A stretch of 64,000 nt of DNA from Chlamydiota bacterium. Its GTDB lineage: Bacteria > Auribacterota > JACPWU01. Both the position numbers and the translations under genes were made by a program. The stretch's first letter is position 1. Every line of letters starts with the position of its first letter. The stretch covers positions 9-64,008 of the forward strand of contig JACOUC010000036.1 of assembly GCA_016178055.1 (NCBI GenBank). Direction: 5' to 3'. Shown here one piece after another: positions 12,901 to 28,226 of the stretch. Below the pieces are notes generated by a model. The model searched no databases. It saw nothing but the letters and a program-made list of their open reading frames with translations, and was not told where the DNA came from.

Positions 12901-15900
12901 TCGTAATGGACCTTGTATTTTCTCCATGCCAATGTTGGAGGTCATGATGATGAGGGTGTTTTTGAAGTCGACGGTGTTCCCTTGGCCGTCGGTGAGTTTT
13001 CCTTCGTCGAAGACTTGCATGAGGGTGGTAAGGACGTCCGAATGGGCTTTTTCGATTTCATCAAAGAGGAGAACGGAATAAGGACGTTTGCGGACGGCTT
13101 CGGTGAGTTGGCCGCCTTCTTGGAATCCCACATAACCCGGTGGGGAGCCGATGAGTCTGGATTTTTGATGGGATTCTTGGTATTCACTCATATTGAAGAC
13201 CGTTAAGGCCTGGTCGCTGTCAAAGAGGAATTGAGCTAAGGCTTTAGCCAGTTCTGTTTTGCCTACGCCTGTGGGGCCGGCCATGAAGAAGACGCCCATG
13301 GGACGTTTGCGCTCACCGGGGATAGCCCGGGCACGACGAATGGCTTGAGCGACGGCTTTGATGGCGTCTTCTTGGCCTACGACTCTTTTATGGAGTTCTC
13401 CTTCGATGTTCAAATATTTGGCTGCGTCGTCTTGGTCTAAGGCACCGACGGCCATGCCGGTCATGTCGGCTAAATATTCCTGGACGTCGGCTTGGGTGAT
13501 GCGGATGTCTTTTCTTAAATTGGATAATCGGCTCAAAATAGTATGGTAAGCCTCGAGTATGCCGATCATTTGGTTATGGACTTCGATGACGGTGGGGTCG
13601 GTGTCTGGAACTCCTTCTTTTTTAAGGTCGATGTATTCGTTAATGACGCTGTGGAGACGGTTGAGGAAGTCTTCTTTAGTCATTTCTAGACTGTTCCTTC
13701 GGGCGTTGACTCGGCCCATGGTTCCTTCTAAGACGTCAATGGCTTTGCGGGGTTGGGATTTTTCAGAGAGATAGCGTTGGGCGCATTTGACAGCGGCTTT
13801 AATGGTAGCACGATCTATTTTGAGTGAGAATTTTCCTTCTAAGTAGGTTTTGGCGCCCGTAAGAATGGTTTCTGTTTCCTGGACACTGGGTTCAGGGACA
13901 GAAACTTTGGTAAACCTGTCTTCGAAGGGTTTGTCTTGTTCGATGTAGGCTTTGTATTCAGGGTCTGTCGTGGCCCCAATCACAGTGACTCGCCCTTTTT
14001 CCAGGATGGGCTTTAAGAGGTCTGCGATTCGGGTGTCAATGCTGTTGCTGGGCCCTTTCAATAGGAAATGGATTTCATCGATGAAGAGAATGACGTTGTT
14101 GTTGGTTTTTTCAAGGAGTGGGATCAGTGTTTTGAGGTTGTCTGACATCTCTGAGAGGGTGCTTCCTAAAGCACCCGCTTTAAGGGCAATGATTCTCCTA
14201 CCCTTTAAAGGGCCATCGAGGTTGTTTCGGGCAAGTTTCAAAGAGACGAGTTCGACGAGGGCTGTTTTACCGACTCCTCTGGGGCCGACAAGAACTAAGC
14301 TGTTTTTGATTCTTACTGGAGTGGCCAGACGAGCCATGATGCGGCCGATTTCTTCAGAGCGCCCCACCAATGGGCGAGCGCTGTCAGCTTCAAGAGCGAG
14401 GTCATAGGTATAGTCTTTTAATACCTGCCACTCTTTTTTCTTTTGACCATTGCCTAAATCGACATCTGCGTTCAGTCCTATTCTCTTCAAGTAATCATCC
14501 AGGGGCTCCATCGGAGACTCACCTACAGAGAGTCGAAGGAATGGGACACCGAGGAGATATCCTAAAAGACCTGCAACTACGGTAAACAATAAGGAAGCAA
14601 TCGAAGATCTCCCATTGATCATCGAAGCCCCCCATGGTACTATTTTGATAAAGGAGGCTTTAAAATGTCCGCGAAACTGCAAGAGCTGACGGAATTGATG
14701 GGAGAATTGGAGCCTAAAAGTCTTTCTCGACGAAGTAGAAATGTTGCCAAAGCGCTCTTGGGTAGCTGCCGCGGCCTCATCACGCCTCGAGGTAAGTCCT
14801 CTACCCGGTGGATCCGACAAGAACGTTCCTCCCTCCACAGCAAGGTGAGATAGTTCTGTGCCCTCATTACCAACACTCATTCTCGATACAGATGTCATTG
14901 TCAACTGGCTATCGGAAGAGCTTGAAACAGGAACAGGTCGAGAGTTATGGAAAGCCCCATTTGACATTATCTCTAAAGCAGAAGAAGGTCGCTCTAGTGT
15001 ACTCATTTGTCTTACAACTCTGTTAGAGCTTAGATTTCTCTTGAGGAGAAAGAAACGGCTGAGTGACGCTTCGATTCGGTCTATTATTAATCGAATGTTC
15101 CAAATTATTTCGGTCAATGTTCCTGACAAAACTGAATTGCTCAGGGCCAACCATCTCCAGAGCCTCCATCCTTTGGACCCGTTTGACGCAATACTGCTCG
15201 CTTGCGCCATGTCGTCTGAAGAAGCTATTCTTGTTTCTCGTGACAAGCCACTCCTTCGCATTGCATCTGAATTCCTTGAAGCACTTAACCCTGAAGATGC
15301 CCTCGCCAAAATTTCAAAGTCTTGAATAGCATCAATGCTAAGACGAAAAACCGGAGAGCCAAAAATCCATCCTAAGAGGCCTGTCCCTATGGCTAATAAC
15401 ACAGAACCAATTTTGAGGATGTGTTGAGCATGTGTATGCTCTCCTTTTCCATCGCCATGAGAATGGGTGTGAGCGGGTTTCATCACTATGCTTGAGGTAG
15501 GGCCTCCTTCATTTGAGGATTGAAGAAGTTCGAGGATTTTAAATTCATCGAGCCAATTCCCAATGGCTTCTACGACGCTTACTCCGTCAGGGAGCCTACA
15601 CTCTTCTATAAGTTTTCTTACAGTGGCTTCATCATCGGCCCCCATTTTTCCCATTTCACGCAGTTTTTCAATCAGCCTGGGCGTTAAGGCCTCACGAAAG
15701 CGCTCTTGAGTATAAGCACCGCTATTGATCATTTCATCCAGGGCCTCAGGGACGGCATGGGAAGCAGCATGTTCTGCGTCTTCTGAGTCTAAGTTGCTTT
15801 TGATGTCGGGATTCTTTTCGGCATCTTGAGCAAGTTGCCGCCCGATCCGGCCTAAGATCTGAGTCAATTTCTTCGCCGCTTCGTCTAGTTTTTTCTGAAT

Positions 15901-18900
15901 AAATTCTTCCTTCATGAGAATATTGGCTTGAATCTCTTTAAAAGGCTTACCGTAATGCTGTTCCAGCTCTTTTTGAAAAAGTTTAATAAAAAGGTCCCGC
16001 GTCTTAGGATCAGCCGTTTTTAATCGATCCGCCAGAAATTCACGTAAGGGTCTTTCCTCACACCAGCCCAGGGCACCAAAACCAAAGAATGCAGATATGG
16101 GAGACGTCATTGCGAGGAGCGAGAGCTCCGAAGCAATCCCAGCTTTGCGCAAAACAGAGATGGCTTCGTCGGCTTCACCTCCCTGCAATGACGGCCAAAC
16201 ATAGCTTCCATCCAAAGACGGAAGAGGCAAAAGATTCACCAACCCTAAAGCCAAATTAATTTTGACTCCCCAAATAAGCGGGCCCATTAAAAATCCAAAA
16301 GGCCCAACGGCATTAGCGGCAAGGGCCCCTACCGCAAAGACCACGGCCAAAATTAAATTACTCACCGGCCCCGCAAGCGCTACTTTCTTCATCGAAGATT
16401 CTGAGAGCCGCCAAGAAGAAATAGGAACGGGCTTTAACCACCCGATCGGAATCCCGATCAAAAGCGTAGACGCTAAAAAAGAAATCGTCCCCCAAAAATC
16501 TAAATGCCTCCAAAACCTGAGCAACGTCAATCGCCCCGCCTCCTCAGCCGTCCGATCCCCCAACCTCGCCGCCAGCCATCCATGGGCATATTCATGAAGA
16601 ATCGCGGAGAAGAGAATAATTGCTATCAATGGAACAGCACTTCCTAAAAGGCCAGGGTTGGCCACAAATACAGCGGCAAAAGGAATGCACAAAAAGACAT
16701 AAATATTCTTGACTTGCCCCGGACTTGATTCTATGATTTTTCTCATGAATGAGAAAAAGACTCCAAAACCTATTCCTACTCCAGAAGAAGCCCAGCGATA
16801 CAACTCCGTTATTATTGAGGAGATGAGAAGCCAATTTAAGGTTTTTGGCGAAGGATTAACCGGTTTTAGAAAAGAAACGAATGCACGATTTGACAGACTC
16901 GAAGAAGTCGTTATGGATACGCGTGAACGTGTCTCTAGGGTAGAGAATAGACTCACCAAAGTTGAAGAGAGCAACGCTCGCATTGAATCTGACATTCGCC
17001 TCATCAAAAACCAAATCAAAGTCAAGGTGGATTTAGAAGAATTTAAAGTACTTGAAAATCGGCTTGTGATCGTTGAAAAAAGACTGGCTGCCCTTCCCAT
17101 CTCCGCTTGATTAGCGCTATTTGAAACTCTTCTGGAACCCCCTATACTGCGTATCAAGCCATCCACATCCCCCACATATCCTCCTAATTCCAAGGCTCTT
17201 CTAAGGTAAATTTCTATTGAATGAGCCGTTTGTGCGTGACTCAGGAAAAATCGCATCTGATCTTGCGTGAGCGTAGTCACGCGTTCAAGCCAAAGAAGAG
17301 GGTTTTTCTGCAATTCATCGGAAACTTCCGAACGATTTTCCTTTCCCGCTTTCCTCTCTATTTCTCGAATAACCCCTTCTAAATCTCTCGCCACCTCCTC
17401 CCAATTTTCTAAATTAAGTTCTCGGGCCAAAACCTCTTGATCCCTTTGCCATTGATCAAATTGGAGAGCCGTAAGCCCCGCAGCAAAAGCAGCCTCTTCT
17501 CCCAACGAGCGTATTTCCTCAAGAAAATGAAGCCTCGCGATTTTCTGAAGGGTCGGAAGTGAGGCTTCTTTTAAAGCATCAGGAGCGCCCGAAATAAATC
17601 CAAATTGCTCTTTCATCTTCCTAAAATAGGCGCTGCGATCGTCATGACCCGTCATACGAGGGGCAATGACCCAATAACCGATCTTGGCCTCTTTCAATTT
17701 CTTCGTGATCCCCTCCGTATGAAACCCACCCACCACAAGCGCTGCACAGGGAAGTTTCTTTTCCTGAATTAATTTAAGAGATTTTTCGAACATGATTTTG
17801 TCTCGTTTTAGAACTTGAGTGTAGAATTTTTGGGAGAGGTTAAAGATTTCTCCAAAATCAGGAGATTCATAGTCTATTGCTTCCTTTTTAGCTAATTCGC
17901 CAAGTTGAATTAGAAAATCTCCGATAAAGTCGTTCGGGCCTGCTTGGCTCGAGGCTCGAGGATAATACTTTGCTCGAGGCTCGAAGCTCGAGGCTCGAAG
18001 TAAATGCTTCTCCAGTTTTTGCTTTTGCCTCGAGCCTCGAGCTTCGAGCCGTTTTATGTCTTCCCTACTTCCTTCCATCGCAATCACACGCCTGAGTAGG
18101 TCATAGTCTTTTTCTAACGCCAGCAGCTCTTTCGCCTGAGGCGTTGTCGCCAAATTTTCAACGAGTTCTCCTTCGAGGTTTTTAATTTCTTCATCCAACT
18201 TCTCCCAAGAGATTTGTTTTAGGAGAGACATTTGTTGAATAAGGAGTTGAAGATTGGGATATGGAGCTGATTTCTCGACAGGCTCGAAACGTTTATTAAT
18301 TCTGTTATTGGAGTGCTTCTCGACTGCGCCTCTCGCTCCACTATCGTTTCTCGACGCGTTTCGACTAATGTCGAAACTTGCTTGAAAACTAAATTTATTG
18401 TTCGAGCGTAGTCGAGAACCTTCCTTCGCGTCCTCTACCTCCTCCTGGCCCCTCCTTGTGGTTTGCGCCGTGTTAGGCTCCAACCACTTCCTCGTCCACC
18501 CGCTACGGCGGGTACCCGGACTTGGTCGCAAGGAAGGGAGATTATTTCCCTCTAGCTTCGAGCCTCGAGCCTCGAGCATTCCTAAGTACTTGCTTAGGAA
18601 CAAATAATGCTCTTCATCACTGGTTCTGCCCAGCCGATGCTCTAAGATATTTCTCAAAACTTCATTGAGTTCTTCTTTTGGAAGCTTCTTCTCTAGTTCA
18701 GATAAAAATAAGAGGTATTCAGACTCAATTTTTGATGCGTCCGTTTTCTTTTCGAGTGCTTGGAGTCGAAGGTAGAAATCAAGCTGGGGGTAGTTTTGGC
18801 TCGAAGCTCGAGGCTCAAGGCTCGAGGAGGAAAGAGGAAGAGATTTATTTTCTACATTTTCAGTTTTTCCTTTTGTCTTTGCTTTTGCCTCGAGCTTCGA

Positions 18901-19887
18901 GCCTCGAGCCTTCAGCCCGTTTTCCGCTTCTAGCTGCTTTACATATTCCCCCATCTCTATCTTATGCTCCCTATACTTCTCCCTTTCTTCAATGAGCTCT
19001 ATCAATTCCTTTGGATAAATTTTTTCGGACAAACCCCTAAATATATCATCTAAACCCTGCCAGACATGCTCTTGTAAATTCCTCTCCTTCAAAAGCTCCC
19101 CCATCGCCCTTAAATTCTCGACATAATCAGACAGTTCTTCCACCCCCACTCCCTTAACCTTTTTTGGCCCTTCCTTAACGAGAAAAGTCTCCACCCCATC
19201 GAGTTCATTTTTATCCAAGAATTTTTTGAGAAGAGAAGCTAAAACCCTCTGATCTGGGAAAGACCAGAAAAAGGACATGTCCATTTCACCATCAGCAGCC
19301 TCACAAAATATATGAAATGGTTTAAAATTCTCAGATACGGCTCTAACTTTGAGATTGTTTTGGCTCGAAGCTCGCCCGCCTCGCCTGACTCGTTCGTCAG
19401 ACGAGTCGCCGCCTTTGGCGAGCCTCGCCCTTTGGCGGGAGGTGGGAGGCTCAAGGCTCGAGGTAAATACTTCTGCTTTCTTTGCTTTTGCCTCGAGCTT
19501 CCAGCTTCGAGCCTCGAGCCCGTTTTTTTCTTCGAGCTTCGAGCCTCGAGCCTCTAGCTGCTTTTGTAAAATTTTCAACATCCTCTGAATATTCTCTTGC
19601 GCCTGAGAATTACAATGAATATCTTCAATAATGAAGAGATGAGGTGCTCCGGGGACATAGAATTGATCGGTCACTTCCCCTATTTCATGGGGAATACGCA
19701 TCTCCTCCAAAACTGAACTTAAATCGAGGGATTTGCGATCCACAGGATTAAACTCATTTACAGAAGTGACTGCTTTCAAATGAGTTGCGAATTGAGTATT
19801 CTGGCCAACAGAATAAGAAATGTCATAAAAGAGGAAGGAAAAACAAACGCACAAACTAATCAATGAACGCATAAACCTGACAAGCAT
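3931..19887 (-). CDS. Giant composite ORF1. Order: signal/TM, ChaN/TraB-like N-domain, M50 protease, Clp-type 2xAAA+, beta-propeller-like segment, large unknown region, GT4 glycosyltransferase, SAM-methyltransferase-like block, unknown C-terminus. It may be four fused cistrons.
   Basis: No stop from 19998 to 3931 (5355 codons). Likely start is ATG 19887 (MLVRFMRSLISLCVCFSF, signal-like), preceded by GAGAGGGG. The blocks are separated by stretches that are antisense to real plus-strand genes. In the ORF1 frame these stretches translate as S/T/L/R-rich low-complexity sequence. Confidence 0.55.
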   Translation of the reverse strand: MLVRFMRSLISLCVCFSFLFYDISYSVGQNTQFATHLKAVTSVNEFNPVDRKSLDLSSVLEEMRIPHEIGEVTDQFYVPGAPHLFIIEDIHCNSQAQENIQRMLKILQKQLEARGSKLEEKNGLEARSWKLEAKAKKAEVFTSSLEPPTSRQRARLAKGGDSSDERVRRGGRASSQNNLKVRAVSENFKPFHIFCEAADGEMDMSFFWSFPDQRVLASLLKKFLDKNELDGVETFLVKEGPKKVKGVGVEELSDYVENLRAMGELLKERNLQEHVWQGLDDIFRGLSEKIYPKELIELIEEREKYREHKIEMGEYVKQLEAENGLKARGSKLEAKAKTKGKTENVENKSLPLSSSSLEPRASSQNYPQLDFYLRLQALEKKTDASKIESEYLLFLSELEKKLPKEELNEVLRNILEHRLGRTSDEEHYLFLSKYLGMLEARGSKLEGNNLPSLRPSPGTRRSGWTRKWLEPNTAQTTRRGQEEVEDAKEGSRLRSNNKFSFQASFDISRNASRNDSGARGAVEKHSNNRINKRFEPVEKSAPYPNLQLLIQQMSLLKQISWEKLDEEIKNLEGELVENLATTPQAKELLALEKDYDLLRRVIAMEGSREDIKRLEARGSRQKQKLEKHLLRASSFEPRAKYYPRASSQAGPNDFIGDFLIQLGELAKKEAIDYESPDFGEIFNLSQKFYTQVLKRDKIMFEKSLKLIQEKKLPCAALVVGGFHTEGITKKLKEAKIGYWVIAPRMTGHDDRSAYFRKMKEQFGFISGAPDALKEASLPTLQKIARLHFLEEIRSLGEEAAFAAGLTALQFDQWQRDQEVLARELNLENWEEVARDLEGVIREIERKAGKENRSEVSDELQKNPLLWLERVTTLTQDQMRFFLSHAQTAHSIEIYLRRALELGGYVGDVDGLIRSIGGSRRVSNSANQAEMGRAASLFSTITSRFSSTLNSSKSTLTLIWFLMRRMSDSMRALLSSTLVSLFSTLETRSRVSITTSSSLSNRAFVSFLKPVNPSPKTLNWLLISSIITELYRWASSGVGIGFGVFFSFMRKIIESSPGQVKNIYVFLCIPFAAVFVANPGLLGSAVPLIAIILFSAILHEYAHGWLAARLGDRTAEEAGRLTLLRFWRHLDFWGTISFLASTLLIGIPIGWLKPVPISSWRLSESSMKKVALAGPVSNLILAVVFAVGALAANAVGPFGFLMGPLIWGVKINLALGLVNLLPLPSLDGSYVWPSLQGGEADEAISVLRKAGIASELSLLAMTSPISAFFGFGALGWCEERPLREFLADRLKTADPKTRDLFIKLFQKELEQHYGKPFKEIQANILMKEEFIQKKLDEAAKKLTQILGRIGRQLAQDAEKNPDIKSNLDSEDAEHAASHAVPEALDEMINSGAYTQERFREALTPRLIEKLREMGKMGADDEATVRKLIEECRLPDGVSVVEAIGNWLDEFKILELLQSSNEGGPTSSIVMKPAHTHSHGDGKGEHTHAQHILKIGSVLLAIGTGLLGWIFGSPVFRLSIDAIQDFEILARASSGLSASRNSDAMRRSGLSRETRIASSDDMAQASSIASNGSKGWRLWRWLALSNSVLSGTLTEIIWNIRLIIDRIEASLSRFFLLKRNLSSNRVVRQMSTLERPSSALEIMSNGAFHNSRPVPVSSSSDSQLTMTSVSRMSVGNEGTELSHLAVEGGTFLSDPPGRGLTSRRDEAAAATQERFGNISTSSRKTFRLQFSHQFRQLLQFRGHFKASFIKIVPWGASMINGRSSIASLLFTVVAGLLGYLLGVPFLRLSVGESPMEPLDDYLKRIGLNADVDLGNGQKKKEWQVLKDYTYDLALEADSARPLVGRSEEIGRIMARLATPVRIKNSLVLVGPRGVGKTALVELVSLKLARNNLDGPLKGRRIIALKAGALGSTLSEMSDNLKTLIPLLEKTNNNVILFIDEIHFLLKGPSNSIDTRIADLLKPILEKGRVTVIGATTDPEYKAYIEQDKPFEDRFTKVSVPEPSVQETETILTGAKTYLEGKFSLKIDRATIKAAVKCAQRYLSEKSQPRKAIDVLEGTMGRVNARRNSLEMTKEDFLNRLHSVINEYIDLKKEGVPDTDPTVIEVHNQMIGILEAYHTILSRLSNLRKDIRITQADVQEYLADMTGMAVGALDQDDAAKYLNIEGELHKRVVGQEDAIKAVAQAIRRARAIPGERKRPMGVFFMAGPTGVGKTELAKALAQFLFDSDQALTVFNMSEYQESHQKSRLIGSPPGYVGFQEGGQLTEAVRKRPYSVLLFDEIEKAHSDVLTTLMQVFDEGKLTDGQGNTVDFKNTLIIMTSNIGMEKIQGPLRTLAEELKTAETEEATQAIITQMNDLIAQTVETSIRAKYKPEIINRIDHIIACNVITPENIRQIARILLKRELSDFTENKFKVEVADNVYETLAQRGYDIINGARPLRRLIEQEIRDPLSNRILEEMAQGHILNGGTFHIDINPERGFQFTFDPAPPSDNRLSASQAVAPIFQKIMGLVGQTVDSQNDGVEPAVLSNLIDSERTAPKTDQMNGQYGCFWARTPLPAPPQQRQRSNHNDPQLKDAAITPFTQALPLPEEQRPIAKDWLNEFVRIAKTHNPGRFIELGSELKEGHFNIQIVREGRMSANEEKFLKTHLTGEYPDIEAARQEALRLRESGESNVRNKLLELKAQMASIPGCQLGFTEGENEVTYWLRMECTEAPKVVIVPEPVRDETGSGADSTTTTITADSAGATVTPPSSPSRKRGKKGSVTSTASDAPLGTTTPRSPDSLLTEEAKERIIKRYREYMGKKLVHILVSPDGRTVLTMRFDRTETSWGGDQYNYYLERTRYWSGQVWNVETRELLETFYGGKNWVRSAKFSEDGSQVLTTNGDGSSKIVWQLQTSQSPSLALSEEEPSSGNIIGPEVTPDEEAQWRREIEEQSDKVRSSHEPVVTLVEERSRALAGRLGSEIWSTLVQQGIENDEIVKVLAALQNPREAFKWFEARVLSREKYFLGSESALAVNLMQFLEAEEKSTGISDLVDEATLHEALERTRLTHPQIIQLTDKIFNREGKNPLGKALRRFIEAHILSGETALPAASTLQPLVVRRENVHQRITEEVRQALLSEEIGTLGKLIEGAIQSQVDQLLFLTAVNFVILQDRTLLERYQSKLNILKTKMPSTFSQTLEIYQRLSQAMEKMPDNASMAQGGRICHYDLYRAGQWRQGDQWDVPRDRNDLTLAQSRNAVEALLMKNLETGEGNILLDSLQDELGGRKLSLDDIEFPVQVIRLQEGVYQNIYFILTTLKQTKEVIPLVMVMARDAQEKSRVTSSEYQALLSHRGDAELVEVLRDGEVETQEGKVSAYTSRFINGRDEIQYISPHHAWANRIPPGYLLVNTSLPGKWGAFVEPGDMINTLAAMGRFLVRYYNPEAQTLIDGFRINAGDVGVDVRDLTAAQGRASVISGREMKFSLITWRGTKRGIDPSHFLDYYFNLHWLGSLREGEKGYRHESLGQGHDAILRTGVMQGFLLEMMKKHGNKEGLELAKVWLNHYINEIQARKLSEKPLFKVQELKAFISRYVDPALGSFSSGKGVLLPSYWLASQVTRPLDWFWVNVLGRKSLSRDFKEDFVVPFIEEIFIWALSLGSPVLYAVLRVVFVWGHERRLEAKNELEARSSREKQRTEEVFTSSFEPRASSGFSSSFRRIFIPTLISLVSLLGFFRTGLSSWEMILVVGITFYLVWNLYGARYLARAANFDSRRATRSSRILYSSKSTFTLTRFLMILRSASIRTLLSEIFSTLISPFSSRVSIFPSLISILSTLVSTFSSRVSILSTLVSIRALPSSTPRTRTRKLASSFSIRSNFLSILAKPSSVFSRSPDNPSPKTLNWPRRSSRMTATWLDFITESFSDLFSSMAGIVGQMLRQVKGKSQRAAIFLVVGMGLLILTSLIQPDIALAGLLPDIQPTSVVSNLFSNILRLWPVLAMGLIAHIVSNHWVTVTGALYQKGVLGDDANDDQGSQTSPEGSITVTQGEASTTENLSQLKEAFSGKVLVFYAPGYLEMNGVSTYMDHLLLLLAQEIKGLKIHVIVLGGGQRVSPLLKRDGGKVVVSSELEGVVQIHMTRQNNEPGQDLADEVNGLLRKILQEEGKVDLIVSESSFHYAGNAFNAFGKQNKIPVIQEFHSGPWRLLDRVPEDLVGDSRFFSPNTVNILKKADLALTVSESVQKRFQKDFGVEVECLYPVADLSFYDPRYVTTTKTDDLRVNHSLSGKTVILMSGRPVERKGYDVVLDAILGLSNDLKRNAAVVIAGFTEDMLRDGDDDYNRQFRESLYEKIQHLREEGVLIVLLGPLSAEEMRDWYFLSDIVAMPSRRDEPLKNEETFGLVSLEAQSMGKPVIVSRSGGLPETVVDGETGCIVESGNVEAFRGKIEELIRHPNLRVTMGQRARQVAGKRFSREANLERHLKLFLGVMRRTNILTEIKRIYTEINHQTIEEKNILEGIAAIFGLDFANDDERHREAGKILSIVAALPETRRKEVLENIVRFLKFMTWHASGEHRFMPLALAVVNMFEGRDIFSREPIVRFIQINPQFRYLLDMYHLYANPFGVEAEWIPTHLPSLHLSIPHKDHYRWLDIGSAPKAYGAPTLNLLRKTFEEALPGTHFSYEGTDAFFPSYSLESGEIRESAFNSADFRERGQTDVEGVTYLDARIPQNDVMSESFMQNRSAESFDFISLSMTLHHLKKPDEGVERRFLAKGVDWVDESGNAIQPFYLLTQTQQEVVERLLKRLSHQGVCFLNLPRGEIYFENQNEDLYLVIQRVGENQYCLYQEAIPFQPEYEVYSSVEFLITGLSFPGYNTSGIRSLYPDETNAFFTEINKWLYRADLLVCHYQGRDAFPWASVRAAVRAINERKGLVEIFSAYLHLVPEDEPLKSRILEGVVQFHKQNLIQNFESWAQENITAGLSLREWMESHTVYDILWTLGDATHSFAKETSLSENDLKTLDAVLVELMIQVKHPDLIREAEAHQAKTERLSLELEARRLLDEEGLGQTVQNIEQELEGKVERGEFQQSSITLDFSGDVTWSIRQDMNGASFEMEIGEMTAQLNSQTLGVTHVQMSRPRDLSLALAYLIGLKTKLRHFQKKFLAALKPSADQKPVCLFPDMDLPVQSLGGLSPTEFIKESETGNRKMVFVERKRSREEFDTLCREHQIPQDRVLFLTDLNEQDARSAIDTKVRELFRGKEAEKWLLGHRENRNLYEPIQGLFDKFMYGQEMVSVMAAICYGDAEAITRALLQHGFKPDELEGLLVDVDEHQVTPFANVSRWHDQMEKFREATEMTERSM
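5560..6070 (-). other. ORF1 block: class I SAM-methyltransferase-like region
   Basis: WLDIGSAPKAYGAPT (motif I-like) and FDFISLSMTLHHL (motif III/post-II-like). Weak call made by eye. Confidence 0.35.
6530..7800 (-). other. ORF1 block: GT4-type (GT-B) glycosyltransferase domain
   Basis: VLVFYAPGYLEMNGVSTYMDHL at the N-terminal end of the block. GRPVERKGYD and the EX7E-type ETFGLVSLEAQSMGKPVIVSRSGGLPETV motif lie toward its C-terminal end. Confidence 0.75.
8162..8190 (+). promoter_or_regulatory. Sigma70-type promoter giving a leaderless transcript of the nested coiled-coil gene (copy 1)
   Basis: TTGACT (8162..8167), 17-nt spacer, TACGAT (8185..8190), 7 nt, then ATG at 8198. The geometry is identical to 16709..16737. 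Confidence 0.6.
8198..8695 (+). CDS. Coiled-coil protein of unknown function (copy 1), nested antisense in ORF1
   Basis: MEENKSEN... with six near-perfect heptads (IETKVDK IETRLEK VETKVDK IEIRLGK IETRLEK GEIKVEK). It is a paralog of 16745..17110, sharing QFKVFGEGL and the conserved tail N.RIE.D.R.IKN..KVKVDLEE.K.LE.R. The TTG at 8162 used by the ORF track is the -35 box. Confidence 0.7.
   Translation: MEENKSENDSVMKSSHVAVILEDLRGQFKVFGEGLSGLREKTEEGFARIDKKFDRIENELANFRVRVRGVEDGNARIETKVDKIETRLEKVETKVDKIEIRLGKIETRLEKGEIKVEKISESNVRIEADLRIIKNLVKVKVDLEEYKILEDRVALLESKFAALAR
8848..8945. repeat. In-frame palindromic (GCTCGAG)n hairpin element
   Basis: Left arm 8848..8876, loop TAAATACTTCTTCGGTTCTTTGCTTTTC, right arm 8905..8928. 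In ORF1 it translates as LEAKNELEARSSREKQRTEEVFTSSFEPRASS. Confidence 0.85.
12480..14420 (-). other. ORF1 block: Clp/Hsp100-type double AAA+ ATPase
   Basis: Walker A motifs GPRGVGKT (~14264..14290) and GPTGVGKT (~13255..13280). Also ILFIDEIH, VVGQEDAI, LLFDEIEKAH and GARPLRRLIE motifs. A single TM helix precedes the block (MINGRSSIASLLFTVVAGLLGYLLG). Confidence 0.85.
14615..14643 (+). promoter_or_regulatory. Sigma70-type promoter of the nested PIN module
   Basis: TTGATC (14615..14620), 17-nt spacer, TACTAT (14638..14643). It is followed by the SD AAGGAGG (14651..14657) and ATG 14665. Confidence 0.5.
14665..14853 (+). CDS. Small protein upstream of the PIN gene, putative cognate antitoxin
   Basis: Perfect SD AAGGAGG 7 nt before the ATG. 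The ORF ends 4 nt before the PIN start. No recognisable antitoxin fold by eye. Confidence 0.45.
   Translation: MSAKLQELTELMGELEPKSLSRRSRNVAKALLGSCRGLITPRGKSSTRWIRQERSSLHSKVR
14858..15325 (+). CDS. PIN-domain (VapC-like) ribonuclease, nested antisense in ORF1
   Basis: LILDTDVIVNWL at the N-terminus, LLEL, DPFDAILLACA and SRD acidic-residue motifs of PIN domains. GTG start, with AAGGTGAG upstream. Confidence 0.8.
   Translation: MPSLPTLILDTDVIVNWLSEELETGTGRELWKAPFDIISKAEEGRSSVLICLTTLLELRFLLRRKKRLSDASIRSIINRMFQIISVNVPDKTELLRANHLQSLHPLDPFDAILLACAMSSEEAILVSRDKPLLRIASEFLEALNPEDALAKISKS
16150..16746 (-). other. ORF1 block: M50 (site-2 protease) family metalloprotease
   Basis: HEYAHGW at 16582..16596 (HExxH within a TM helix) and the NLLPLPSLDG motif. 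The block begins at an in-frame Met at 16746 (MRKIIESSPGQVKNIYVFLCIPF). Confidence 0.8.
16709..16737 (+). promoter_or_regulatory. Sigma70-type promoter giving a leaderless transcript of the nested coiled-coil gene (copy 2)
   Basis: TTGACT (16709..16714), 17-nt spacer, TATGAT (16732..16737), 7 nt, then ATG at 16745. Confidence 0.6.
16745..17110 (+). CDS. Coiled-coil protein of unknown function (copy 2), nested antisense in ORF1
   Basis: MNEKKTPKPIP...IIEEMRSQFKVFGEGLTGFRKE...KVKVDLEEFKVLENRL. Paralog of 8198..8695. Confidence 0.7.
   Translation: MNEKKTPKPIPTPEEAQRYNSVIIEEMRSQFKVFGEGLTGFRKETNARFDRLEEVVMDTRERVSRVENRLTKVEESNARIESDIRLIKNQIKVKVDLEEFKVLENRLVIVEKRLAALPISA
17946..18050. repeat. In-frame palindromic (GCTCGAG)n hairpin element
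   Basis: Arms 17972..18000 and 18028..18050, loop TAAATGCTTCTCCAGTTTTTGCTTTTG. Translated as LEARGSRQKQKLEKHLLRASSFEPRA. Confidence 0.85.
18290..18577. repeat. Composite GC-richer insertion ending in a (CCTCGAG)n arm
   Basis: Contains the 20-mer GTTCGAGCGTAGTCGAGAAC (18400..18419), an internal IR CCTTCCTTCGCG/CGCAAGGAAGG, and the arm 18550..18577. ORF2 and ORF3 have no counterpart in their N-domains. Confidence 0.6.
18798..18917. repeat. In-frame palindromic (GCTCGAG)n hairpin element, long-loop variant
   Basis: Arms 18798..18827 and 18888..18917, with a ~60-nt loop similar to that of 54885..55004. Confidence 0.85.
19362..19556. repeat. In-frame (GCTCGAG)n element with a nested GC-rich hairpin insertion
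   Basis: GGCTCGAAGCTCG ... [GACTCGT-TCGTCAG-ACGAGTC hairpin] ... GGCTCAAGGCTCGAGG TAAATACTTCTGCTTTCTTTGCTTTTG CCTCGAGCTTCCAGCTTCGAGCCTCGAGCC. Confidence 0.8.
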
Positions 19888-20069
19888 GACAACCCCTCTC
19901 GATCTTGAAAAAATCAATAATGACTGCAAGCTTACATAAGTAAAGACACTTTGGGGACTAGAAATGTAAAAATAAAAATTTAGAAATTTCCATCTCACAA
20001 TTGATAAAGGAAGGTTTCTTATAGAATAACCAGCTATTCCTTCAAGCCCTTACATAATGATTTCCTCTA

Positions 20070-20232
20070 CTTTATGGAACTGTTGCAAAATGTAAGCTTT
20101 ACCGTTCGAGCGCAGTCGAGAACAAATGTTTTGAGCTCGAACTTCTCGATTCGGCTCGAAATCTTCGACTTCTCGAGACTCGGCTCGAAGAATAACGGGT
20201 GATGCACATTTTGCAACAGAGCCTTTATGAAC
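20070..20232. mobile_element. MITE-like element in the intergenic region upstream of ORF1
   Basis: 13-bp perfect terminal IR, TGTTGCAAAATGT (20081..20093) and ACATTTTGCAACA (20206..20218). Flanking direct repeats CTTTATGGAAC and CTTTATGAAC. The interior is rich in TCGAG/CTCGAA motifs and carries the 20-mer GTTCGAGCGCAGTCGAGAAC (20104..20123). Confidence 0.55.
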
Positions 20233-20286
20233 TAAAAGTAACTGTTTTTATATACCTTTAGTTCACATTGTTTTCCAATCTCCCTT

Positions 20287-21978
20287 TCACCCCACCTTAA
20301 CAAGCCCCAACGTCACATCATCGGTTTGGGGCTGATCTTGGATGAATTCTGTTACTTGCTTTAAAAGTTTTTGGAGAATCACTTTCGCCTTCTCGTGTGA
20401 GGCCTCTTTGAGGACATTTTCGATGGCAGGTATAAAATAATGCTCGAAAGTTTGATGAAAAGCATTTCGAGCATGAAGGGCTCCATCCGTGTAAAAGAAA
20501 ATTTTATCTCCTTTTTTTAATTCTATATTTTTTTCTTCAATCATATTTTCAGAATCCCAATCAGAGACCCCTAATGCAACACCCTTGGTAGTTAATTGAA
20601 TCTTTTCCTTTCCTTCATCCCTCATGATTAAAAGAGGTAAATGCCCAGCTCTCGCAAAAGAAAGAACATCATTCTTAACATCTAAAAAAACAATATTGCA
20701 ACTGATCAACATATCTTTTTTCAAGTTCTTCAAAAGCCATTGATTAAGTGTGTTAAGTAATTCCTTCGGCGATAAAGCCCCTTTTATTTTGGTCTTAAGC
20801 ATTAAACGAAACATCGCCATCGCAAGCGCTCCCGAAATACCCTTGCCGCTCACATCCGCCAAGACCAAGGCCAATCGATAATCATCGACCCAATACCAGT
20901 CATAATAATCATTCCCGACTTCTTTTGCAGCCCAGCGGCAAAATGAAAAATCAAATCCTGGAATTTCTGGAAATTCTTTTGGAAGTAAAGCCTGATGAAT
21001 TTGATCAATGGCTTCAGATTCATATTTCACATTCTGCCCTTCTCCATAAATCTTTTGATACTGCCGCACTTGAGAAAGACTCACCGCCACTTGTGCCGCA
21101 AATCCGCTCAAAAAACGCAAATCATCTTCTTCAAATTGACCCATTTTAAAAAGCGTATCGCAATAGATCATCCCTAGAACATTTTTCTTTAAAATAATCG
21201 GAACACAAATCGCTGATTTGATCCCATGAATCTGTACGGTTTGCGATTTTCGAAATCTTTCATCCTGACCTGCATGCACACAAAGAACGCCCACCCCTTC
21301 ACGAAGAACGGTATCCAAAATTTCCTTACTGATCTCCAAAGGATAATATCCAGCCCGATCCGTTCCACGTCGAATGCTCCGGGGAACAAATTCTTGAGTC
21401 TTTTCATCACAGCAAAGAATGACATAGCGGTCTGCAGAAATAACTTCTCCTATCAAGTCCAAAATTTTATAAATCAAAAAATCCTCTTCTAAAATAGAAT
21501 TTAAAATAGAGCTTGCCCGATAAAAAAGTGAAAGATTTTTTTCTGTTTTTTTGATGAGTTCTAAATCTGAAAAAGAAGGTTCAAATTCAAGATAAGAAGA
21601 AAGATCCTGACTCGGAAAGATTTGAGCAATCGGCGGAGAAATTAATTTTTTGGTAACGACTTCCAAAGGGTTTTCTCTTTCTTCATGAGATAACGCAAGG
21701 GCACTCGAAAATTTTAGAAGCGTCCCTCCCAAAAGAATTTCATCCCCCTCTTTGAGCACATACCGATTAATAAATATGCCATTGACATATGTCCCATTAA
21801 CGGCATCTAGATTTCGAAGAATGTAGGAGCCTTCATCCTTGCTAATTTGGGCATGAAACTCTGAGACGCGCAGATCATGAAGAACCCATTGATTGCTCTT
21901 ATCTCGCCCAATGGAAACCCCCTCATGAATAGGATAGACCTGTCCTTCTTCAACACCATGAATAACAATGAGATTCAT
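20287..21978 (-). CDS. FHA - GAF - PP2C/SpoIIE-type phosphatase regulator
   Basis: N-terminal FHA (VSIGRDKSNQWVLHDLRVSEFHAQI...NGTYVNG), a central GAF-like region, and a C-terminal SpoIIE-like PP2C (GNDYYDW...ADVSGKGISGALAM...TDDVTL). Confidence 0.85.
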   Translation of the reverse strand: MNLIVIHGVEEGQVYPIHEGVSIGRDKSNQWVLHDLRVSEFHAQISKDEGSYILRNLDAVNGTYVNGIFINRYVLKEGDEILLGGTLLKFSSALALSHEERENPLEVVTKKLISPPIAQIFPSQDLSSYLEFEPSFSDLELIKKTEKNLSLFYRASSILNSILEEDFLIYKILDLIGEVISADRYVILCCDEKTQEFVPRSIRRGTDRAGYYPLEISKEILDTVLREGVGVLCVHAGQDERFRKSQTVQIHGIKSAICVPIILKKNVLGMIYCDTLFKMGQFEEDDLRFLSGFAAQVAVSLSQVRQYQKIYGEGQNVKYESEAIDQIHQALLPKEFPEIPGFDFSFCRWAAKEVGNDYYDWYWVDDYRLALVLADVSGKGISGALAMAMFRLMLKTKIKGALSPKELLNTLNQWLLKNLKKDMLISCNIVFLDVKNDVLSFARAGHLPLLIMRDEGKEKIQLTTKGVALGVSDWDSENMIEEKNIELKKGDKIFFYTDGALHARNAFHQTFEHYFIPAIENVLKEASHEKAKVILQKLLKQVTEFIQDQPQTDDVTLGLVKVG

Positions 21979-22070: not shown

Positions 22071-22236
22071 ACCCAAGAACAGAGATAGGAAAATGGAATT
22101 CGACGCAAGATCTTGGCCATCTTGTCCTTCAGAAAGCCTCGACAGACACCTCTCAGTGTATGCCTACGTTTTCTTCAGGCCAATCTAGCTCAAGCTTTTG
22201 CGTCTCGGTTCTCATTTCCTATCTCTGTCCTTGGGT
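22071..22236. repeat. 166-bp element with ~48-nt imperfect terminal inverted repeats (MITE-like, or a structured 5' leader)
   Basis: ACCCAAGAACAGAGATAGGAAAATG (22071..22095) pairs with CATTTCCTATCTCTGTCCTTGGGT (22213..22236). Complementarity continues inward (GACGCAA/TTGCGTC). The element ends 12 nt before the debranching-enzyme ATG. Confidence 0.6.
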
Positions 22237-24214: not shown

Positions 24215-24245
24215 ATTTCGAATCTCGGATTTCGAATTTCGAATT
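24215..24245. repeat. Left heptamer-repeat arm of the four-helix-bundle cassette
   Basis: ATTTCGA ATCTCGG ATTTCGA ATTTCGA ATT. Its reverse complement shares an 18-19 nt perfect core with 24617..24649. Confidence 0.8.
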
Positions 24246-24255
24246 GAAAAACAAA

Positions 24256-24618
24256 ATGAATTCTCAAGAGTTAAAAACGAGGACTAAACTGTTTGGACTT
24301 AAAATCATTCTTTTGGTTGAAAAATTGCCACGTTCAAAAACATTGGATATTATAAATCGTCAACTTCTACGCTCTGCAACATCCATCGGGGCAAATTATA
24401 GAGCTGCATGTCGTGCAAGATCCAAAGCGGATTTTGTGTCAAAAATTGGCATTGTCGAAGAAGAATCCGATGAATCAGTTTATTGGCTTGAATTGCTTAT
24501 AGAAACTAAGCTGGTTACTGATACCCAAATACATGTCTTGCTTAAAGAAGCAAACGAGTTAACAGCGATCTTTACCGCAACAGGAAGAACTACAAAAGAA
24601 AAACAGAAAAATGAATAA
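24256..24618 (+). CDS. Four-helix-bundle protein (23S rRNA intervening-sequence protein family)
   Basis: LPRSKTLDIINRQLLRSATSIGANYRAACRARSKADFVSKIGIVEEESDESVYWLELL fits the family pattern. ATG at 24256; the track start 24244 is a TTG inside the repeat arm. Confidence 0.8.
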   Translation: MNSQELKTRTKLFGLKIILLVEKLPRSKTLDIINRQLLRSATSIGANYRAACRARSKADFVSKIGIVEEESDESVYWLELLIETKLVTDTQIHVLLKEANELTAIFTATGRTTKEKQKNE

Positions 24619-26113
24619 ATCCGAGATTCGAAATCCGAAATCCGAAATCAAGAGGCTTTCCCTCGAATCCCTTGCCCAAAATGCCCTCGATGAGGCTATT
24701 TCGCTTGGAGCTTCCTACGCCGATGTCCGATTAATTGAATCCACCAGCCGAAATCTGGCCACCAAAAATGGAGTTCCAACCAGTTTGGATATTGAAGAAT
24801 CGCAAGGCCTAGGAATCAGGCTTCTTTATCATGGGGCCTGGGGATTTGCGGCTACGCATGATCTTTCAAATGAAAATGTATTACGGACAGCCTTTAAAGC
24901 CATTAAAATTGCTAAGGCCAGCGCCCTCACAAAAAAAGAGCCTGTTCGACTGGCCGAAGAAAAACCGATTCAAACAGAATGGTCCAGCCCCTTCTCCATC
25001 GATCCTTTTTCAGTTCCTATTGAAGAGCAACTTAATTTTTTATTACAAATCGATGAAGAAATCAGAAAAACCAAAGGGATCAGCATCTCTGAAACATCCA
25101 TGCATTTTCATAAAGAACACAAACTTTTTCTCTCGAGCGAAGGAAGCCGTATTCTCCAGCACTTTATCACCAGTGGAGCAGGGTTTGTTGCGATGGCTTT
25201 TCGAGATGGAGAATTGCAAAAACGTTCTTACCCTAATTCCTTTGGGGGACAATACCAAAAAAAGGGTTATGAGCTCATTCAAGAGCTAGAACTTCTCAAA
25301 AACGTTCCAAGAATCGCTGAAGAAACCGTTCGCCTTTTAGATGCCCCCAGTTGCCCTGTTGGAGAAAAGGATCTCATTTTAGACAGCTCTCAACTCGGTC
25401 TTCAAATCCATGAATCGGTTGGACACCCTATTGAGCTCGATCGAGTGCTCGGAAGTGAGGCCAATTACGCCGGAAAAAGTTTTCTTACGCTAGATCAATT
25501 AAAAACCCTTCAGTACGGATCCCCTATTGTTCACGTCGTCGCTGACGCTAGACTTTCACATGGTCCAGGTCTCGGCACGTTTGGCTATGATGATGAGGGC
25601 GTCCCTGCACAAGGAACGGATATTATTCGAGAGGGACAATTTGTAGGCTATCTCTCCTCTCGCGAGACCGCTCAAGATATCGGCGAAACACGCAGCAATG
25701 GAACCATGCGAGCTGAAAGCTGGAATCGGATTCCATTAATCCGCATGACCAATATTAGCCTCATGCCAAAAAATTGGGACTTTGAAAACTTAATTGCAGA
25801 CACAAAAGATGGAATTTATTTAGAAACAAATCGAAGCTGGAGCATTGATGATCGTAGGCTCAATTTTCAATTTGGAACTGAAATAGGATGGGAAATTAAA
25901 AATGGCAAGAAGATGAATAGGGTCAAAAACCCAATTTATTGGGGAATCACACCCGAATTCTGGAACGCCTGCGATGCCATTTGTAGTGATCGATATTGGA
26001 CGCTCTGGGGAACTCCCAATTGTGGCAAAGGACAACCCTGCCAAACCATGGGAACAGGTCACGGTTCTAGTCCAGCTAGGTTTCGCGGGATAAAGGTTGG
26101 AGCCAGTCATTGA
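24611..26113 (+). CDS. tldD: TldD-family metalloprotease
   Basis: 500 aa. The HESVGHPIELD (HExxxH) motif and overall TldD/PmbA architecture are present, and it pairs with the PmbA-like gene downstream. The only in-frame start lies inside the cassette arm. Confidence 0.8.
   Translation: MNKSEIRNPKSEIKRLSLESLAQNALDEAISLGASYADVRLIESTSRNLATKNGVPTSLDIEESQGLGIRLLYHGAWGFAATHDLSNENVLRTAFKAIKIAKASALTKKEPVRLAEEKPIQTEWSSPFSIDPFSVPIEEQLNFLLQIDEEIRKTKGISISETSMHFHKEHKLFLSSEGSRILQHFITSGAGFVAMAFRDGELQKRSYPNSFGGQYQKKGYELIQELELLKNVPRIAEETVRLLDAPSCPVGEKDLILDSSQLGLQIHESVGHPIELDRVLGSEANYAGKSFLTLDQLKTLQYGSPIVHVVADARLSHGPGLGTFGYDDEGVPAQGTDIIREGQFVGYLSSRETAQDIGETRSNGTMRAESWNRIPLIRMTNISLMPKNWDFENLIADTKDGIYLETNRSWSIDDRRLNFQFGTEIGWEIKNGKKMNRVKNPIYWGITPEFWNACDAICSDRYWTLWGTPNCGKGQPCQTMGTGHGSSPARFRGIKVGASH
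24617..24649. repeat. Right heptamer-repeat arm of the four-helix-bundle cassette
   Basis: AAATCCG AGATTCG AAATCCG AAATCCG AAATC. Translated as the first residues of TldD (KSEIRNPKSEI). Confidence 0.8.
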
Positions 26114-26119
26114 CAAGAA

Positions 26120-26178
26120 GATCTATAAACGCGGATCTAACGCAGATCTATAAACGCAGATCAAATGCGGATCTATTT
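26120..26178. repeat. Left repeat arm of the GxxExxY cassette
   Basis: Tandem GATCTATAAACGCG / GATCTAACGCA / GATCTATAAACGCA / GATCAAATGCG units, complementary to the right-arm units GATCCGCGTTT. Confidence 0.75.
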
Positions 26179-26655
26179 ATGGCTATAGAAGAAAAATTGC
26201 TGTATCAGGAGATTACATATGAGATTAGAGGAGCGTGTTTCTGGATATGGAAGGAATTCGCAAGTGCATTCAAAGAATCTATCATTGATAAAGCCCTCAC
26301 GGAGGAACTCAAGAAAAGGGGACTTAAGGTTGATAACCAAAAACACATAGACATTTTCTACAACAAAAAGAAAGTAGGAACTTATATTCCTGATAAAGTT
26401 ATCAATGATTGTGTGCTCGTTGAACTCAAAAGAAAACCTTTTTTACTACGGCAAGATAAAGAACAATTGTGGCATTATTTAAAAGGATCCGAATACAAAT
26501 TGGGTTTGCTAATCAACTTTGGAGAAAACGAACTAGAGTTTGAACGCATCGCCTACGACACTAAAAGAAGATCAAAGAGAGATCAGCGCCAGATCCGCGT
26601 TGCAGATCCGCGTTTGATCCGCGTAGTAGATCCGCGTTTGATCCGCGAACAATGA
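26179..26655 (+). CDS. GxxExxY protein (PD-(D/E)XK-like family)
   Basis: MAIEEKLLYQEITYEIRGACF... and LGLLINFG are typical of the GxxExxY family. The C-terminal 25-30 aa (IRVADPRLIRVVDPRLIREQ) are read from the right repeat arm. The track start 26110 is a TTG. Confidence 0.75.
   Translation: MAIEEKLLYQEITYEIRGACFWIWKEFASAFKESIIDKALTEELKKRGLKVDNQKHIDIFYNKKKVGTYIPDKVINDCVLVELKRKPFLLRQDKEQLWHYLKGSEYKLGLLINFGENELEFERIAYDTKRRSKRDQRQIRVADPRLIRVVDPRLIREQ
26581..26650. repeat. Right repeat arm of the GxxExxY cassette
   Basis: Five units of (CA)GATCCGCGTTTG type. The arm ends at the ATGA stop/start overlap with pmbA. Confidence 0.75.
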
Positions 26656-27994: not shown

Positions 27995-28226
27995 AAATCC
28001 AAAATTTAAACATCAAAAATCAAAATGACATCTCAAAATCCAAAATATATCTATGTCATAGATCATGAAATCATTTTAAATTTTAATATGTCATTTTGAT
28101 TTTTGTCATCATGAACTTTCAGTCCACCCAAGTGGATGAAAATTGAGTTCCTCCCCTTTGGGGTACAAAGGAGGGAAATAGCCAGTAACAACGTCTCATT
28201 TTCATGACTGAATTTTGATTTTTGGA
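27995..28226. repeat. Intergenic inverted-repeat element with AAAATCA-type heptamer arms
   Basis: CATCAAAAATCAAAATGAC (28010..28028) pairs with GTCATTTTGATTTTTG (28091..28106). A further copy GAATTTTGATTTTTGG lies at ~28210..28225. There is an internal hairpin CCTCCCCTTTG-GGGTA-CAAAGGAGGG. Confidence 0.55.

Follow-up and report, generated by a model that had tools for sequence, protein, structure and literature searches.

A palindromic intergenic element in a Chlamydiota bacterium contains a small hairpin unit that recurs within giant open reading frames and in genomes of other phyla

The 64,000 nt stretch of Chlamydiota bacterium DNA that we analyzed (assembly GCA_016178055.1, contig JACOUC010000036.1; hereafter, the window) contains, between the gene for a phosphatase and the giant open reading frame (ORF) ORF1, a palindrome at positions 20070-20229 that had originally been predicted, from the sequence alone, to resemble a miniature inverted-repeat transposable element (MITE). 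Our best reading is that this is a non-coding palindromic repeat element, and neither a gene nor a dedicated regulatory RNA. What the element has in common with other loci and genomes is a small inner hairpin unit, and not its termini. Thus, the discrete, palindromic, non-coding unit with terminal inverted and direct repeats envisaged by the original prediction is indeed present, whereas a multi-copy MITE family sharing its TGTTGCAAAATGT termini is not supported by our searches, which revealed no second copy in the window, in 185,579 species genomes, or in viral contigs.

The shared sequence is a 20-mer, GTTCGAGCGCAGTCGAGAAC, located at 20104-20123 in the core of the element. As anticipated, it also occurs in two of the giant ORFs; the copy in ORF2 (54663-54682) is exact, whilst that in ORF1 (18400-18419) has one mismatch. 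A covariance model of the hairpin unit, R1, gave exactly three strong matches in the 64 kb, all on the + strand, with scores of 33.4 bits at 20099-20128, 31.0 bits at 18395-18424, and 29.3 bits at 54658-54687; the next match in the window scored <12 bits. The link between the element and the in-ORF insertions is therefore stronger than first thought, since the common 20-mer is a structured hairpin unit, and the model matches exactly the element, ORF1, and ORF2.

The unit is a small hairpin in which a 4-bp covarying stem closes a conserved 12-nt loop. With the stem relaxed, its general design comprises a foot, TGTC[A/T/C], four variable bases, the loop GAGCG[N]AGTCGA, and the complement of the four bases; the stems found were GTTC/GAAC, CATC/GATG, GGTC/GACC, CCTC/GAGG, CTTC/GAAG, and GGTT/AACC. 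Across 88 distinct units, 84% of the cells were paired over the five pairs tested, compared to 59.5% when shuffled (a value of 84% was reached by 0 of 500 shuffles) and 37-59% in controls in which the stem was slid. Four of the five tested pairs covary, including column 7-24, where all four Watson-Crick pair types are found, and the fifth pair is not real. The mispairs in the stem (10 G·T versus 3 A·C), which bear on whether the structure acts at the RNA or the DNA level, are not decisive.

The pattern GTTCGAGCG[C/T]AGTCGAGAAC had at least 128 matches in at least 120 loci of the species-genome collection, where ~2 would be expected by chance for 596 Gb. Among the matches listed, the unit is found in >100 species from at least six phyla; the loci are mostly from Flavobacteriaceae and other Bacteroidota, with further carriers in Sphingobium, one Alphaproteobacteria metagenome-assembled genome (MAG), two Gammaproteobacteria MAGs, Latescibacterota, Omnitrophota, and Gottesmanbacteria, and several genomes give more than one locus. 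Some carriers are complete Flavobacteriaceae genomes, such as NZ_CP169639.1 and NZ_CP138998.1. The 20-mer is also present in four viral contigs. Because their flanks are unrelated from locus to locus, the 20-mer loci are dispersed repeats. They are mostly extragenic, with 13% of the matches lying deep inside long ORFs compared to 65% of random positions, and in other genomes units of the family are often located directly after stop codons. Their usual arrangement is an inverted doublet of an "A" unit and a "B" partner, of which there are 58 in the fetched loci. A "long-form" partner, which carries a nested ~26-nt hairpin (…AGTTTAYYYTGAGCGAAGTCGAAGG…), always at one and the same point in the TCGACT…GCTC loop, was observed in loci L006, L013, L034, L035, L068, and L105, which come from Flavobacteriaceae, Latescibacterota, and one Gammaproteobacteria MAG; it is either a conserved variant or the product of repeated site-specific nesting.

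The unit is not in Rfam, was not found in the literature on repetitive extragenic palindromic (REP) sequences that we consulted, and does not have the defining features of the GTAG and CGTC REP families. No Rfam family covers the unit in 10 loci, and an Rfam scan of 19500-20800 gave no meaningful match (E >= 0.87). The loop sequence is not in the supplements of two REP surveys, and text searches of the literature for it returned only unrelated primers, which is weak evidence of novelty.

Within the window, there are three to four unit loci (Table 1). Residues 455-539 of ORF1, which carry the unit, are without counterpart in the alignment to the paralogous N-terminus of ORF2, and therefore represent an 85-codon in-frame insertion. 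The same kinds of units as in the element are clustered at window positions 18271-18424, inside ORF1, and the insertion also holds a hairpin, GTTTCGAC-ATTA-GTCGAAAC. The partner tail, CTCGAAGAATA, is found exactly at 20184, 54630, and 56686 and also occurs in L034 and L081, and the split unit upstream of ORF2 has the design seen in the split units of L034 and L093.

The three giant ORFs of the window (3931-19998, 35563-56601, and 56702-63754) comprise 5,355, 7,012, and 2,350 codons, respectively, and have paralogous N-termini (23-25% identity); ORF1 encodes a ClpB-like double AAA+ module and a GT4 glycosyltransferase. These ORFs contain heptamer arrays, (GCCTCGA/GGCTCGA)n, mostly as inverted pairs and mostly near the N-termini, which encode low-complexity peptides of the LEARGS type. 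Since this heptamer is identical to the 3′ half of the B-type unit in this genome (…CGGCTCGAA…), the arrays may derive from the hairpin family.

The element itself is ordered as CTTTATG, a 17-bp repeat, 10 nt, unit A, 18 nt, partner B1, 6 nt, partner B2, 10 nt, the second 17-bp repeat, and CTTTATG (Table 1). Its core has its closest homologues in doublets from outside Bacteroidota, whose inner feet are TTATT…AATAA, and B1 resembles the consensus partner of other genomes, CTTC-TCGACTNCGCTC-GAAG. The terminal inverted repeat, initially described as 13 bp, is part of a perfect 14-bp repeat (arms CTGTTGCAAAATGT, 20080-20093, and ACATTTTGCAACAG, 20206-20219, separated by 112 nt) that extends imperfectly to 17 bp (15/17 matches). 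Both of the near-identical direct repeats that had been noted were found (CTTTATGGAAC at 20070-20080 and CTTTATGAAC at 20223-20232). A simpler reading, however, is that a perfect CTTTATG adjoins the imperfect 17-bp terminal repeat on either side, in which case the problem of a right copy "4 nt away" from the inverted repeat disappears.

The window contains seven perfect inverted repeats of >=14 bp within 200 nt, compared to 0.08 expected from first-order Markov simulations, and the inverted repeat of the element is therefore not due to chance. By our own estimate, the chance of a 7-bp direct repeat abutting it in this way is roughly 0.5%. The palindrome has clean ends, because the flanks beyond CTTTATG are not complementary, and the junction predicted for an empty site is CTCTA-CTTTATG-AACTAAAAG. 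The 163 nt originally delimited fold into one long hairpin, with an RNA folding energy of −59.7 kcal/mol (z = −5.75; 0 of 200 shuffles as good) and a z score of −5.13 when folded as DNA. The AT-rich outer stem precedes TTCCATAAAG, and there is no complementarity between the two 10-nt segments, AAGCTTTACC and CGGGTGATGC, that separate the outer arms from the inner stem. The CTCGAA/TCGAG-rich tracts remarked upon earlier are evident as eight TCGA sites in the bin 20000-20199, the maximum of any 200-nt bin in the window. Between the direct repeats, the element measures 146 bp and contains only spurious ORFs of <=49 amino acids without database relatives. It therefore shows several hallmarks of a MITE, namely terminal inverted repeats, a small size without a transposase gene, and a flanking direct repeat, the last of which, as one instance, is suggestive only.

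Table 1. Coordinates of the element, its neighboring hairpin, and related repeats in the window
Feature	Position	Strand	Remarks
Left flanking direct repeat, CTTTATG (candidate target-site duplication)	20070-20076	+	Identical to 20223-20229; adjoins the imperfect 17-bp terminal repeat
Left terminal inverted repeat, GAACTGTTGCAAAATGT	20077-20093	+	Perfect over 14 bp at 20080-20093 (100% complementary)
A hairpin unit, stem GTTC/GAAC closing loop GAGCGCAGTCGA	20099-20128	+	Best covariance-model match in the window, 33.4 bits, E = 4.7e-08
Degenerate inverted partner B1, CTTC-TCGATTCGGCTC-GAAA	20142-20162	+	Read from sequence; direct repeat of B2
Inverted partner B2 with tail, CTTC-TCGAGACTCGGCTC-GAAG-AATAA	20169-20195	+	Weak covariance-model match, minus strand 20158-20195, 9.9 bits
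Right terminal inverted repeat, ACATTTTGCAACAGAGC	20206-20222	+	
Right flanking direct repeat, CTTTATG	20223-20229	+	
AT-rich 13-bp hairpin, 92% complementary, just 3′ of the PP2C stop codon	20228-20265	-	Element directly beyond
ORF1 in-frame insertion, 85 codons	18271-18525	-	A unit 18395-18424 (+); B-type units 18271-18290 and from 18316
In-ORF2 copy	54605-54687	-	B-type tail …CTCGAAGAATA 54630-54640, then A unit 54658-54687 (+), 29.3 bits
Split B-type unit, CTTCTCGACTCTC[…]CTCGAAGAATAA	56653-56697	+	In the 100-nt ORF3/ORF2 spacer, upstream of ORF2
Heptamer arrays	8848-8927, 17972-18050, 18549-18917, 19490-19520, 36485-36515, 54885-55005, 55621-55647, 63039-63068, 63370-63399		

A sensitive self-BLAST of the window revealed no second full copy of the element, and the 13-mer termini, TGTTGCAAAATGT, occur nowhere else in the 64 kb. 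We searched more widely with a pattern in which the two 13-mers are separated by a gap of 95-125 nt, and obtained no match in 185,579 species genomes (one per species, in a collection that lacks this genome itself), nor did viral contigs contain one. Among metagenome contigs there was a single match, at 2042-2177 of L005, which was rejected as a second copy: it is an element of 136 nt whose 39-bp terminal repeats enclose the 13-mer internally, and its core is as similar to ours as shuffled sequences are (−16 versus a mean of −15). Given also that this JGI metagenome contig is eukaryote-like with low coding density, the match was treated as a coincidence. A concatenated six-frame translation of the element had no relatives among 5.8 billion proteins, and blastn against plasmids and phages returned nothing at E <= 0.1, a search that is uninformative for a 20-mer. 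The other loci of the family in the window are without an outer inverted repeat, and no transposase gene, let alone one with matching ends, was detected in the window. An independent Logan short-read contig, L001 (SRR12113417, and shared by two further runs), matches the window exactly, right arm and neighboring 19 nt included, but ends within the element, after …GTTATTCTTC (position 20187); at its other end, it breaks off within a second palindrome, at ~22098. The break inside the element could be due to a repeat, strain heterogeneity, or a drop in coverage.

Outer arms were also observed around some doublets elsewhere. Those of L034 (2755-2870), L093, and L013 (1059-1257) have 13-16-bp outer inverted repeats, located at a distance from the A unit similar to that in the window element, and in L034 the complementarity continues past the arms (GTAAT…ATTAC). 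The sequences of these arms are unrelated to each other and to those in the window. We rejected the idea that outer inverted repeats are a general property of the doublets, given that Bacteroidota doublets gave control values.

The gene adjoining the element encodes an FHA-GAF-SpoIIE/PP2C phosphatase of 563 amino acids, whose next-best homologues after the identical one share 46-50% identity, with none between 50% and 100%. Three relatives (L002-L004) keep the gene order GDE, PP2C and, further on, UbiD and MqnC. In these relatives, PP2C is followed, 7-104 nt away, by a gene for a protein of 612-675 amino acids, which is a kinase-HEAT protein (667-675 amino acids) in two of the three; the third is cut off and unannotated. 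The corresponding slot in the window is occupied by ORF1, which most likely starts at ATG 19887 behind the Shine-Dalgarno sequence GAGAGGGG. The PP2C/ORF1 spacer is therefore ~400 nt long, ~300 nt longer than those of the relatives, and the element lies ~180 nt upstream of the ORF1 start. No sigma-70-like promoter was called in the element, and no intrinsic terminator was called in 19700-20400; the AT-rich hairpin behind the PP2C stop codon was passed over by the terminator scan because it has no T-run. The earlier suggestion that the element takes the place of the ORF1 promoter is therefore not supported. In the three nearest relatives, R1 gave no match across 46.5 kb of syntenic DNA. The L002 spacer behind PP2C has an inverted repeat of its own (10905-10985; AGATTGTAG…CTACAATCT), built of TTGTAG-like heptamers, and the heptamer repeat of L002, ACTTACA, differs from the TCGA type of the window; it seems that each lineage has its own short-repeat family.

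The reading that we lean towards is that the element is a cluster of hairpins, similar to REPs or to the REP doublets forming hairpins known as REPINs, inside a locus-specific outer inverted repeat. We rank it first because it is the unit, and not the termini, that is common to loci and genomes. The core (~20099-20195) would then consist of three copies of the hairpin repeat, an intact A and two degenerate inverted partners, in an arrangement like that of a REP doublet or REPIN. The repeated and presumably mobile entity would be the small hairpin unit, whilst the outer 14/17-bp inverted and 7-bp direct repeats, specific to this locus, would identify the cluster as a single, discrete insertion located just past the 3′ hairpin of PP2C. 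By analogy with REPs, the units may spread as single-stranded DNA hairpins that are handled in trans by an HUH/Y1 enzyme resembling the REP-associated tyrosine transposases (RAYTs) (PMC3116915; PMC6006769). Any local effect would probably be neutral or, at most, would stabilize or insulate the 3′ end of PP2C.

Several observations weigh against such a REP/REPIN-like cluster. The perfect 7-bp direct repeat beside the terminal repeats looks like a target-site duplication and, since Y1/RAYT transposition makes no such duplication, it points to insertion of the whole 146 bp by a DDE-type enzyme. A regular-expression search for the HUH…Y motif of Y1/HUH (RAYT) transposases gave no match in the window or in the 8-kb loci. 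RAYTs are single-copy per genome, so one may lie elsewhere, and our view of this genome covers 64 kb only. The window copies do not have the TGTC[A] foot of most Bacteroidota copies, their feet being TTACC, TTATT, or ATCTT. Lastly, the near-equal distance of the outer arms from the A unit in L034, L093, and the window hints that the arms may belong to the element.

The next candidate, possible but clearly less probable, is a classical MITE, in which the whole 146-bp element with its 17-bp termini would be mobilized by a DDE transposase in trans, CTTTATG would be the 7-bp duplication of the target, and the hairpin units would be cargo or internal sequence. The main argument for this is the abutting perfect 7-bp direct repeat, and it would agree with terminal repeats that are perfect over 14/14 positions (15/17 overall), a palindrome that ends sharply at the direct repeat instead of fading, the small size without an ORF of note, and a spacer ~300 nt longer than in the relatives. 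The composites of L034, L093, and L013 likewise have outer inverted repeats, and the L001 contig breaks inside the element, as repeats often cause. Nevertheless, conservation of the core across loci and genomes, with termini that differ, is the reverse of the usual MITE pattern. Furthermore, the termini have no second copy in the window, the 185,579 species genomes, or the viral contigs, the sole metagenome match is unrelated in its core, the six-frame peptide search came back empty, and the window is without a transposase having matching ends.

We regard as unlikely a more far-reaching proposal, namely that the unit represents an undescribed family of tiny mobile elements with its own dedicated enzyme, which spreads horizontally across phyla. 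Under this proposal, the unit may seed in-frame low-complexity inserts and the (GCCTCGA)n arrays that help to build giant genes in this PVC-group genome. When inserted outside Bacteroidota, the unit may come to be surrounded by outer inverted repeats that are specific to each locus (the window, L034, L093, and L013 being examples), and this could reflect a mechanism in which an inverted copy of target sequence is made upon insertion.

Less likely still is that the palindrome grew in place, with the outer arms made locally, around a hairpin-unit cluster that had landed or arisen at this site, by intrastrand template switching (quasi-palindrome correction or extension) and without any transposition of the arms. 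Such an origin could account for arms that are perfect and locus-specific here and different in the other composites, for the complementarity of L034 that continues beyond its arms (GTAAT…ATTAC), and for the several unique long intergenic palindromes in the window. It leaves the flanking 7-bp direct repeat unexplained, however, and the non-complementary 10-nt segments are not what one would expect from outward extension of the inner hairpin.

We consider it improbable that the element is a functional RNA, whether as a terminator or 3′-end stabilizer of PP2C, a regulator in the 5′-untranslated region of ORF1, or a small RNA. Despite the very stable fold (z = −5.75), the position between two co-oriented genes, the frequent location of family units right behind stop codons elsewhere, and the related split unit upstream of ORF2, there is no match in Rfam and no terminator-like or promoter-like site, and the stem is AT-rich without a T-run. 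In addition, the element is missing from this position in the relatives and is made of dispersed repeat units that are also found inside ORFs.

Finally, a chance similarity or an assembly artifact is highly improbable: the middle of the element lacks independent confirmation, given that the Logan contig ends at 20187, yet inverted repeats of such length number seven against 0.08 expected, the 20-mer is exact at two window loci and in >100 genomes, complete chromosomes included, L001 matches the right arm and the next 19 nt exactly, and a fold-back chimera is excluded by the two flanks being different genes. Integron attC sites (there are no RYYYAAC or GTTRRRY ends), hammerhead-type ribozymes, and a tRNA-like origin were also considered and dropped after reading the sequence.

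Other palindromes and apparent cassettes were observed in the window. One palindrome, of 166 nt (22071-22236) with 22-nt arms that are 95% complementary, is located in the divergent PP2C/GDE spacer, and L001 ends just inside it; in L003, this spacer carries an inverted repeat of 20 nt that is not the same one. Another palindrome, of 92 nt (28014-28105), has arms made up of CAAAATN heptamers, with the PmbA gene on one side and the VitK2-biosynthesis gene on the other. Both are unique and intergenic, with arms unrelated to those of the element. Between GDE and TldD, a 23S_rRNA_IVP gene (four-helix-bundle, PF05635; 24244-24618) has inverted arrays of heptamers on either side, consisting of (ATTTCGA)n and the complementary sequence, and the region (24215-24648) looks like an inserted cassette; at the same place, L002 has only an inverted heptamer hairpin, and in L004 the genes abut. 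Between TldD and PmbA, in the region 26110-26655, a gene for a PD-(D/E)XK nuclease (PDDEXK_3, PF13366) is flanked by inverted arrays of 11-13-nt tandem repeats (26119-26176 and 26580-26647). The TldD/PmbA spacer holds a 23S_rRNA_IVP gene in L002 and nothing in L004, and is therefore one slot that receives different small cassettes in different genomes.

A single intergenic palindrome is ordinary selfish DNA, and the main result is the make-up of this one from a cross-phylum hairpin unit. If the unit were to prove a distinct family, it would offer a compact system in which to study the spread of tiny hairpin repeats across phyla, the tolerance of such repeats in frame inside proteins, and the way in which repeats may give rise, within giant genes, to heptamer arrays and low-complexity linkers. 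As regards annotation, the unit accounts for the odd LEARGS/SRLRS-type peptides in the giant ORFs, and it may also be the reason for breaks in short-read assemblies at this locus.

How does the element compare with known systems? Bacterial MITEs include Correia/NEMIS, RUP, and Nezha, and like these the element is ~150 bp long, non-coding, located near a gene end, bounded by terminal and direct repeats, and able to fold into a long hairpin. In contrast to MITEs, its termini are single in the searched data, and its conserved part is the core and not the ends. The Rickettsia palindromic elements, which Ogata and colleagues reportedly described in 2000 as 100-150-bp units, are likewise palindromic repeats found both between genes and in frame within genes, in their case in a host-associated lineage. 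Here, however, the unit is ~20 nt and clustered, and no relationship in sequence was seen. The small dispersed repeats of cyanobacteria, which Elhai and colleagues are said to have described in 2008 together with heptameric STRR (short tandemly repeated repetitive) arrays, also combine nesting hairpins of ~20-27 nt with heptamer tandem arrays. Their counterparts in the window are (GCCTCGA)n and the nested long-form B units, although the sequences and phyla differ.

The CGTC/TGTC-tagged superfamily, which includes Neisseria dRS3 and Rickettsia RPE-4 and RPE-6, is distributed over Bacteroidetes, Proteobacteria, and intracellular bacteria, mostly as head-to-head dimers, and its families have an 8-9-bp stem starting with A-T pairs, a 4-5-nt loop, and a CCA tail (Di Nocera et al., 2013; PMC3733652). 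The Bacteroidota copies of our unit are similar in having a TGTC[A/T/C] tag beside the hairpin. However, the stem of the unit is 4 bp, its loop is 12 nt, there is no CCA tail, and the window copies are without the TGTC tag.

REPs and their inverted doublets are mobilized by RAYT/TnpA-REP Y1 transposases, and canonical REPs have a GT[AG]G foot, stems of 7-20 bp, and loops of 2-5 nt (PMC3116915; PMC6006769). In-frame insertions of REPs into genes have been reported (PMC6006769), and "atypical secondary structures" lacking GT[AG]G are said to lie on either side of the Bacteroidetes RAYT subclass 2.6 (Quentin et al., PMC6006769). Our unit differs from REPs and REPINs in having no GT[AG]G foot, a 4-bp stem, and a conserved 12-nt loop, and in being common to many species of several phyla, unlike REPs, which are usually confined to one lineage. 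In addition, the outer inverted repeat and 7-bp direct repeat are not features of REPINs, and no RAYT was found in the window or the fetched loci. Even so, the unit shares with REPs and REPINs a short hairpin with a covarying stem, many copies that are mostly extragenic, and an arrangement in inverted doublets and clusters. In summary, the element works like REPs/REPINs and, within ORFs, like the Rickettsia palindromic elements.

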